A stretch of DNA of 64,000 bases, taken from Dictyostelium discoideum. Taxonomy: Eukaryota. The translations under genes and the position numbers were made by a program. Of this stretch, positions 40,127-42,858 are shown piece after piece. Each line of letters opens with the position of its first letter. The first letter of the stretch is position 1. The stretch lies in assembly GCA_000004695.1 (NCBI GenBank), contig CM000151.3, forward strand, positions 160,001 to 224,000, written 5' to 3'. Under the pieces are notes generated by a model. It saw only the letters and a program-made list of their open reading frames with translations, was not told the DNA's origin and made no database searches.

Positions 40127-42858
40127 TTACTTCTTTTGAATTTGAAGGTGTGTTGCAGTTACTATAATTTCTTCATCAGATTTCGTATTTGTAGAGGAAG
40201 AGGAGGAAAAAGAGGATGGTGTCGTTATTGTCTCAATAGCAATATCATTTTTATTTGCTGTTGAAGTTGATATTGGTTGTTCTTCTTCTTTTATAATATT
40301 TTCTTCCTTTCTTTCATCTACTTTTTTATCTGTATTATTATTATTATTATTATTATTATTATTATTATTATTATTATTATTATTATTATTATTATTATTA
40401 TTATTATTATTATTATTATTATTATTATTATTATTATTATTATTATTATTATTATTATTATTATTATTATTATTATTATTATTATCATTATTATTATTAT
40501 TACTATTTAATTGAGTTGTAGTTGATGATGGTAGTGGTGATGGTGGAGTTGAATGTGTAATTGTTGGTGTTGTAGGAGTTGTTGGAGTTGGAGTTGGAGT
40601 TGGAGTTGGAGTTGGAGTTGGAGTTGTTGGTGTAGTTGTTGTTGATGGAGATGAGTTTTTATTTCCTCTTAAAACTAAATCAGGAATTGGTGGTAAATTA
40701 TTATTTTGAGTCGATGGGATAGTTTGTGTTTCTGTTGAATAAATCTTTTTCAATGATAACACTAATGAATCTACATCAATTCCTATGCTATTACTACTAC
40801 TACTACTACTACTACCATCATTAATTTGCTGTTGTTGTTGTAGTTGTTGACTACAAATTATATCAAAACATTTTACAATGAATGGTATAAAATCTTCAGC
40901 TAAACATTTACAAAATGAATGAAACACTTTATCGAATGATGAAGTTATAGTTGTTGTTGTTGTTGTTGTTGTTGTTGATGGTGAATTTATTAAATTTGAA
41001 ATTGTATTTGATAATAGTTGATTATAAAATGATGTTACACCACCAACTATACTAATAATTAATTCTTTTAATTTTAAAATTACAATTGATCTTAAAGAAA
41101 TTGGGAAACAATCTTTAAGTTCATTAAATGATTTTAAAATTAAATTAACTAAAACTGCTAATGGTTGATGTTGTAATATTGATAATGGTGGTGAAATATA
41201 TTGTGACGATGATGATGATGATGATGATGAAGAAGTAGATGTGGTAGAGGAAGTAGGAGAAGTTGATTTTTGTAATGGAAATTTATAAGTTTTTAAAGTT
41301 TCTAAAAAATGATGATTTGCAGTTGTAATTTGTGATAAGAAATTATTTAGAATATGTTTTTCAAAGATTGGTTCTAATAGATTTCTAAAATCAATACCAA
41401 CACGTGATATTGACATTGAGAAATACATTGAATTCTCTAAAACATATGAAATCGAAGAACCACTTTTAATATGATTTAATGTTGAATCCACTATATTTAT
41501 ATAGACTTTAATCTTTTGTTGAATCCAATTATACAATATTAAATCATCCAATTGATCCTCATCATTTGATTCATTTGAAAATATAGCATTATATTGTGTA
41601 ACTATATCAAATATATTTGTTCTACAACTATCTGTTAATTTTGTTAACTATAAATAAAAAATAAAAATAAAATAAAATAATTAGTTAATGATATATTTAA
41701 ACACTGAATGGTGGTATATATATACTTTACATAAGTAACATGATTTGAATTTGTAATATCAAATTTTAAACTATTAATTAACCATTGATCTCTTGAATGT
41801 AAAAATATAATTTTCAATTCATTCTCTTTATAAATTGATAATCTACGTAGGTATCCAATAGTTTTAATACAATTTGTTAATGTTATATCTTGTCTTAATT
41901 GTTGTTGAAGTGTGCTAATTAATGATCTTGTACAAACTTTTATCTCTTTAATCTAAATAATAATAATAATAATAATAATAATAATAATAATAATAATAAT
42001 AATAATAATAATAATAATAATAATAATAATAATAATAATAATAATAATAATAATAATAATAATAATAATAATAATAATAATAATAATAATAATAATAATA
42101 ATAATAATACATTAATTAATATACATATGTTTTAAAGAAATATTATCTCTTTTAAAAATAATAATACAAACAATTTCAATTATAACAGTATTATTTGAAT
42201 ATTGTTTATAAATTTTCTTTGCAAATGATTCTAATTGTAATGCTTCATCGAAAGAATTGTTTTTAATACAAGTATCCATTAATTGTGGTATTTCTAATAT
42301 ATCTAAAAGTGTTGAGAAATTATCTAATAAATTCTTTATTGATGATCTTCTCTCTGTTAATGAATGAGATTTACTTGAAAAACTTTCACATGAACTACTA
42401 ATAGTTGGTAAATTACTTAATAATCCATTTTCAATTTGATTTGATACATTTTGAATCTTTTTTTTTATTTTTATTTTATTTTTTTATGATAAAAATTAAT
42501 GTCATGCTGAAAAGAAAGAAGAAAACAAAAACAAAAAAAGATATATAACTAGTTATATTTATTTACCTTTGAAACAGTATAATTTAATGTTTTATAATTT
42601 TCAATAAATAGTTGATAGTGATCAATTGCTTAATTTTTGCATTTCTTTTATAGTTTTATTTTTTAATTCGGTGATTTGACTTGGTTCTCTTAATAACTTT
42701 TCAAATGATAGGTTATTTATTCCACCACTTATTGAACTATGTGTGACATTTTGAATTACATTATTATTATTATTATCATTATTATCATTATTATTAATAT
42801 TATTATTACTGTTGTTGTTATTTATAAAATTATTTTCATCTGTATTGACTTTTGACAT
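40127..42858 (-). CDS. cog8: conserved oligomeric Golgi complex subunit 8 (COG8/Dor1)
   Basis: Four-exon model complement(join(40127..41647,41731..41952,42172..42456,42567..42858)). Matches to human COG8: LSFEKLLREPSQITELKNKTIKEMQKL to LERLRREPERLAEERAQLLQQTRDL; LFIENYKTLNYTVSK to LAFANYKTFIRGAEC; ILEIPQLMDTCIKNNSFDEALQLESFAKK to ILEIPQLMDTCVRN.YYEEALEL; TIGYLRRLSIYKENELKIIFLHSRDQWL to [60 protein letters not shown]...MYFSMSISRVGIDFRNLLEPIF to FHGWVLQKVSQFLQVLETDL...MYFGLSFSRVGADFRGQLAPVF. Exon 1 contains one nucleotide too many for a continuous frame (see findings). The last exon encodes a roughly 55-residue poly-Asn run and (PT)n. Confidence 0.8.
41953..42110. repeat. (ATA)n / (AAT)n microsatellite, about 53 units, within cog8 intron
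   Basis: A perfect trinucleotide array. All three frames on the gene strand (ATT/TTA/TAT) would give homopolymeric Ile/Leu/Tyr, so it is intronic. It is flanked by acceptor tatttag (41953) and donor GTTTGT (42171). Confidence 0.9.

Follow-up and report, generated by a model that had tools for sequence, protein, structure and literature searches.

The cog8 gene of Dictyostelium discoideum is expected to encode COG8/Dor1, subunit 8 of the conserved oligomeric Golgi (COG) tethering complex. According to one survey, this complex is fully retained in D. discoideum (PMC1810245). In the 64,000-nucleotide stretch of D. discoideum DNA analyzed here (the window), however, the reading frame of cog8 is broken twice as written. 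This raises the question of whether the breaks are features of the organism or of the sequence. The evidence described below favors, with a probability of roughly 0.8, base-calling or assembly errors in the source of the window, with the gene itself being an ordinary, intact four-exon COG8.

Organization of cog8 and the Frame Break in Exon 1

The window has a G+C content of 21%, and cog8 is located on its minus strand (39855..42858), where it runs from the ATG at 42858 to the true stop codon, TAA 39857-39855, through four exons. Exon 1 (42858..42567) is 292 nt long, which is 3n+1, and ends at the donor AAG|GTAAAT (42567|42566), followed by intron 1 (42457..42566; 110 nt, GTAAAT..AG). Exon 2 (42172..42456; 285 nt, IQNVSNQ...LDILEIPQLMDTC...) opens in phase 0 at 42456 with IQNVSNQ...ILEIPQLMDTC and is separated by intron 2 (41953..42171; 219 nt) from exon 3 (41731..41952; 222 nt). 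Intron 2 contains a long (ATT)n repeat. Exon 4 (39855..41647) follows intron 3 (41648..41730; 83 nt) and includes an (AAT)n poly-Asn tract and an acidic C-terminal tail.

The first break is located in exon 1. Read in frame 0 from the ATG, this exon encodes ...LSFEKLLREPSQITELKNKTIKEMQKLSN and then reaches TGA 42624-42622, a premature stop on the minus strand (42622..42624) that is created by an extra base and ends a 78-aa ORF (42622..42858). The +1 frame encodes AIDHYQLFIENYKTLNYTVSK and is open as far as the donor. The earlier note on this DNA had described the same arrangement, namely an exon 1 of 292 nt from ATG 42858 to AAG|GTAAAT, a TGA at 42622-42624 in the ATG frame followed by a conserved block (AIDHYQLFIENYKTLNYTVSK) that is read in the +1 frame, and a phase 0 start of exon 2 with IQNVSNQ...ILEIPQLMDTC; all of these elements were recovered when the sequence was read again.

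Comparison with a Same-Lineage Assembly

Exact-protein look-ups of neighboring genes led to a second sequence of this region, NCBI assembly GCA_054883475.1 (contig JBTAPE010000001.1; 3.62 Mb), referred to here as the sister assembly. The alignment covers window positions 1-16945 and 20281-64000, with 99.5-99.8% identity. Two interruptions split the cog8 ORF of the window; the sister assembly lacks the extra A and has an unbroken ORF for an 863-aa COG8. When the cog8 exon model is placed on the sister assembly (L002 11768-14768), the 863-aa protein predicted there is reproduced exactly, with the same gene boundaries. Intron 2 has one ATT unit fewer in the sister assembly than in the window.

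In the pairwise alignment of exon 1, the window reads CAA AAA TTA A GCA ATT and the sister assembly reads CAA AAA TTA GCA ATT (..QKL|AIDHY..). Over the site as a whole, the sister assembly has GCAAAAATT-AGCAATT and the window has GCAAAAATTAAGCAATT. The surplus nucleotide sits between TTA (42633-42631) and GCA (42629-42627), in an AA pair on the minus strand (42630..42631) where TTAAGC is found and TTAGC is expected, and exon 1 is 291 nt long in the sister assembly versus 292 nt in the window. The claim of the earlier note that there is one nucleotide too many within 42618-42640 is borne out by this direct alignment (sister TTAGC, window TTAAGC). Its suggestion that the extra base lies in the A5 run has to be given up, as the surplus base belongs to the AA at 42631/42630 and the A5 run that precedes the site does not differ between the window and the sister assembly.

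A second frameshift is located near the 3' end of the gene on the minus strand. Alignment to the sister assembly reveals that one A is missing from the window at 40151|40150 (40150..40151), where the window has GCAACA-CACC (GCAACACACC) and the sister assembly has GCAACAACACC (..VTATTPSNSKEV..). The missing A brings a premature TAA into frame (40127..40129, minus strand), such that the literal reading ends ...VTATHLQIQKK* and about 91 C-terminal residues are cut off. The tail frame is stop-free for 101 codons up to TAA 39857-39855, in DNA with a G+C content of 21%, and this open tail matches the C-terminus of D. firmibasis COG8 (E = 0.005), with both proteins ending in TTF. The intact COG8 peptides across the two shift sites are ...EMQKLAIDHYQLFIENYK and ...VTATTPSNSK. 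Within the tail, the codon at 39989 (minus strand) is GCC (Ala) in the window and ACC (Thr) in the sister assembly, which is the only exonic substitution between the two in about 39 kb of coding sequence.

Over the approximately 61 kb compared, the window and the sister assembly differ at 134 places. Most of these differences are in the length of long A/T homopolymers, with the sister assembly being shorter every time, and further differences are A-to-T clusters in T-rich intergenic DNA. The intergenic clusters look like an error mode of the sister assembly itself; they were tested as small inversions and are not inversions. Only 8 of the 134 differences are inside gene ranges, and these comprise three intronic repeat-length differences, the substitution at 39989, and four exonic frame-changing differences (26749, 40150, 42630, and 51933). 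At 26749 the window is one base short, which splits a 740-aa gene into the ORFs 26738-27490 and 25416-26735, and at 51933 two surplus bases in an (AT)n run of the window break a single-exon gene of 216 aa. The window is broken and the sister assembly intact at all four frame-breaking sites, with no case of the reverse (4:0). Three of the five exonic differences belong to cog8 (two indels and one substitution), and the non-homopolymer differences cluster locally, from 39989 to 43600. The 1-nt indel at 45640, in DNA that is degenerate and unannotated, does not indicate which assembly is right. The second cog8 frameshift, the indels in the two other genes, and a 52-nt GT..AG decoy in exon 1 (see below) had all been missed in the earlier reading of this DNA.

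The relationship between the two sequences is indicated by their coding regions. The calnexin encoded in the window (536 aa, 56838-58448) is identical to AX4 XP_645704.1 (cnxA, DDB_G0271144; about 14 kb from cog8), and the calnexins from wild isolates of D. discoideum that fall in its protein cluster differ in length. On the basis of the calnexin identical to that of AX4 and of a single exonic substitution in about 39 kb, the window and the sister assembly are assigned to the same clonal laboratory lineage. The window most likely derives from the AX4 chromosome 2 reference of the Sanger era, and the sister assembly probably represents AX2-214 or, failing that, another clone descended from NC4. 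Holland et al. 2025 deposited assemblies of AX2-214 and of wild isolates that combine Nanopore and Illumina data, and they reported 99.5% identity between AX2 and AX4 at another locus (PMC12745789).

Identity of the Protein and Colinearity with Orthologs

Following removal of the one A, the repaired protein gives a single continuous match to the Pfam Dor1/COG8 family (PF04124) over residues 47-376 (E = 9e-80). This match covers positions 4-337 of the 339 in the profile with 268.5 bits (cut-off 23.3), and it spans the frameshift site in one stretch. The literal 78-aa ORF matched no family in the Pfam profile search. A word-indexed protein search with the full-length query returned Acytostelium subglobosum as the best match together with many plant COG8 proteins; Dictyostelium COG8 was not among the matches of this search, the index of which is evidently without close relatives, and a query restricted to the junction gave two candidates and no match in the same kind of search. 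An exhaustive search added D. firmibasis, Tieghemostelium lacteum, and two further relatives (P0123 and P0124). Identity over the compared part is 91% for D. firmibasis, 61% for Tieghemostelium, 62-63% for Acytostelium, and about 36% for plants. The best matches are COG8 proteins and are colinear with the D. discoideum protein along the N-terminal helix and the core, as expected for COG8 orthologs. The repaired protein fits the profile end to end, and it differs from plant and other distant COG8 proteins in possessing extra poly-Asn, poly-Thr, and Thr-Pro tracts and an acidic tail.

The exon 1 junction was examined in a joint alignment with six COG8 orthologs (D. firmibasis, Tieghemostelium lacteum, Acytostelium subglobosum, the lycophyte Diphasiastrum complanatum, P0123, and P0124). 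The frame 0 and frame +1 pieces adjoin exactly at columns 33|34 (Leu, Ala), and all six orthologs have L-A at the junction without a gap, indicating that there is exactly one surplus base. Given this exact abutment on the orthologs, the frame break in exon 1 is not a chance arrangement.

Sequence records were also searched for the broken and the annotated products. The literal ORFs of 78 aa, 439 aa, and 55 aa (exon 2 read-through) have no exact record in the Logan and NCBI assemblies, which is weakly informative; intact neighboring proteins are on record, Logan run assemblies included. A metagenome pattern scan gave 0 matches for either allele. Seven models of how COG8 might have been annotated were looked up exactly in the protein collection, and none was present there. 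These comprised the 863-aa protein of the sister assembly and six AX4 models, in which exon 1 was repaired, spliced at the 52-nt pseudo-intron, or replaced by a downstream Met start, and in which the C-terminus was repaired, read with a 2-nt skip, or taken literally. The literature search returned no specific curated note on a cog8 sequencing error, nor one on JBTAPE/GCA_054883475.

Origin of the Frameshifts

The simplest proposal is that both breaks arose in the making of the sequence. A one-base insertion error, the extra A in TTAAGC at 42631/42630, would shift the frame after Leu76 and lead to the TGA at 42624-42622, and a one-base deletion error, the A missing at 40151|40150, would lead to loss of about 91 residues from the C-terminus. 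The gene itself would most likely be intact in the organism, with conventional translation of an 863-aa COG8/Dor1 subunit, and no recoding, odd splicing, or pseudogenization would be needed. Consensus errors would account for the 4:0 asymmetry, the restored ortholog colinearity, the local clustering of differences, and the finding that the remaining roughly 785 cog8 codons contain no in-frame stop in the correct frames. The lesions are absent on independent sequencing of the same lineage, and similar lesions are present in two unrelated genes of the window. We infer that the indels are errors rather than real AX4 mutations. The earlier note had offered two readings of the surplus base, a trivial assembly or strain indel and an inactivating frameshift in a conserved Golgi tethering subunit, and the former is now favored since a sequence with one base fewer has been found in the same lineage (GCA_054883475.1). 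The proposed errors resemble the interrupted-CDS errors of finished reference genomes: conserved ORFs are split by single-base indels that lie outside repeats or in short runs, vanish on resequencing, and occur several per region. They differ in that the resequencing evidence here comes from a sister laboratory strain and not from the same DNA preparation. Coding sequences interrupted by sequencing errors are documented in other genomes, such as that of Mycobacterium smegmatis (PMC1852416).

If the frameshifts were instead real, the AX4 lineage would have a disabled cog8 that yields a 78-aa N-terminal stub, leaving the COG complex without subunit 8, and any product of downstream reinitiation would be missing its N-terminal helix as well as its C-terminal tail. 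In favor of this possibility, the letters of the window literally read so, and lobe-B COG subunits are non-essential in yeast. Among the yeast COG subunits, only COG2-4 are essential (PMC1810245). Furthermore, the two indels and the sole exonic substitution of the window all fall in cog8, as they would in a dead gene; however, this clustering is explained equally well by relaxed constraint and by a locally low-quality stretch of sequence. Mutation rates argue strongly against real lesions. In D. discoideum, substitutions have been measured at 2.5-2.9e-11 and small indels at 4.9e-11 per site per generation (PMC3466296, PMC7466956). At the indel rate, about 39 kb of exons would be expected to acquire about 2e-6 indels per generation and about 0.2 over 1e5 generations, compared with 4 observed. 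Four genuine lesions in this amount of exon sequence are implausible at such a rate, and for the cog8 CDS alone about 0.01 indels are predicted even over 1e5 generations, compared with two observed. The presence of the same lesion type in two unrelated genes of the 64 kb would correspond to about 10% of genes being broken, a density at odds with a strain that grows and develops normally. In addition, the rest of the CDS is wholly stop-free in the correct frames, and exact look-ups found the truncated ORFs in no public assembly. Taken with these points, a real lesion in the source strain is considered unlikely. Classification of cog8 as a unitary pseudogene was rejected on similar grounds, as the same-lineage assembly does not have the lesions, roughly 785 codons are stop-free, and the mutation-rate arithmetic is against it.

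Two further explanations accept the window as written, and both are considered very improbable. The extra base could be genuine and bypassed, either by programmed +1 frameshifting at UUA-A, by transcriptional slippage, or by splicing of 52 nt. In support of a bypass, conservation extends in each frame to the junction itself, and a 52-nt GT..AG segment on the minus strand (42629..42680; GTCAAATC...ATTAAG) is 3n+1 in length, such that its removal would restore the frame. The statement in the earlier note that no GT...AG pair can be placed between the two conserved blocks does not hold given this frame-restoring pair (42680..42629), although the pair is not a credible intron. Its GC content of 0.21 is that of an exon versus 0.04-0.15 for real introns, its donor (GTCAAA) is poor, it is shorter than the real introns of the gene (83-219 nt), and its removal would delete SQITELKNKTIKEMQKLA, 17 residues that are conserved in orthologs. 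Programmed +1 frameshifting was likewise rejected, as the site is UUA-AGC and neither the sister assembly nor any of the orthologs has the shift. To our knowledge, the features that mark known +1 sites (Ty1, RF2, antizyme) are all missing from UUA-AGC. Re-pairing of the P-site tRNA in the +1 frame is not possible at this sequence, and the A site contains neither a stop nor a rare codon. The resemblance of cog8 to the programmed +1 genes (antizyme, RF2, Ty1), in which conserved frame 0 and frame +1 segments also abut at one codon boundary, is superficial only, as cog8 is without a slippery or hungry-codon context. Most directly, the base is simply absent from the same-lineage assembly, so that no bypass is needed, and the second shift at 40151|40150, which is of opposite sign, would require a separate mechanism.

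The converse explanation is that the window is correct and the Nanopore-plus-Illumina sister assembly is wrong at the four sites. The systematic shortening of homopolymers and the clustered A-to-T intergenic differences in the sister assembly are consistent with this; however, no long homopolymer is involved at any of the four sites. In each of the four cases a long ORF is recovered in the sister version, and at both cog8 sites ortholog colinearity is regained as well, a pattern that random errors would not produce.

Implications

The finding is primarily of value for curation. This 64-kb stretch of the presumed D. discoideum reference sequence contains four 1- or 2-base indels that break the frames of three genes (cog8 twice, the 740-aa gene, and the 216-aa gene), and all four are resolved by the newer assembly. 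In gene models, protein sets, and calls of orthology or gene loss that are derived from the old sequence, these three genes will be truncated or split.

It is unlikely, and slightly more so than the presence of a real lesion as such, that AX4 truly carries a doubly frameshifted cog8 while the AX2 copy is intact. If this were true, AX4 would be a natural COG8-deficient strain with possible effects on Golgi glycosylation and retrograde traffic, and comparisons between the AX2 and AX4 laboratory backgrounds would be confounded, particularly for secretion and glycosylation phenotypes. Under the favored explanation of sequence errors, there is most likely nothing new biologically: the break in cog8 would not be a real feature, and D. 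discoideum COG8 would most likely be an ordinary, intact member of its family.

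Frameshifts in cog8 and neighboring genes

A second frameshift in cog8 (minus strand) lies at window positions 40150-40151, where the window is without one A that is present in the Nanopore-based sister assembly (GCA_054883475.1). As a result of the missing A, the minus-strand reading frame meets a premature stop at 40127-40129, and about 91 C-terminal residues of the product are lost. The alternative frame is free of stops for 101 codons, the true stop in this frame lies at 39855-39857 (minus strand), and the encoded tail matches that of the D. firmibasis COG8 protein. The gene also contains two perfect triplet repeats: an (AAT)n tract in exon 4 (40333-40510), which codes for about 59 Asn residues in a row, and an (ATT)n tract of about 55 units (41956-42125), which occupies most of intron 2. 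These repeats are mutual reverse complements inside a single gene.

The gene at 26749 (minus strand) is one base short in the window, with T4 in place of the T5 of the sister assembly, and a G6 run adjoins this indel. The one-base loss splits the gene into two minus-strand ORFs (26738-27490 and 25416-26735), whereas the sister assembly encodes one 740-aa product (aligned locus L001, 5258-8574). Comparison of the assemblies also identifies a single-exon, Asn/Gln-rich ORF of 216 aa on the minus strand (window ~51400-52054; sister locus L002, 2610-3260), which is intact in the sister assembly and broken in the window by two surplus bases that lengthen an (AT)n run at 51933. Because this site is a dinucleotide repeat, the two-base difference could be real slippage rather than an error.

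No gene was called in the sister assembly for the 2.7 kb at window 44634-47362, where ORFs are fragmented (~100 aa); this stretch is possibly a decayed repeat-protein gene. The assemblies differ within it by a 1-nt indel at 45640, and the correct version is not discernible from the indel itself.

Intergenic and intronic differences

In T-rich intergenic DNA at window 32136-32432, 52198-52223, and 53086-53177, many closely spaced positions carry A in the window but T in the sister assembly. Inversions were ruled out as the source of these clusters, which resemble a type of error made systematically in the Nanopore-based assembly. The ABCA-type transporter gene (window ~33220-36050, minus strand) has extremely long homopolymers in its introns, at 34176 and 35904, with poly-A reaching 70 or more and poly-T 100 or more; in the sister assembly they are shorter by 59 and 84 nt.

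Chromosomal location

The calnexin gene cnxA (DDB_G0271144) is found at window 56838-58448 on the minus strand and encodes a protein identical to AX4 XP_645704.1. With this gene, the window maps close to the beginning of D. discoideum chromosome 2.
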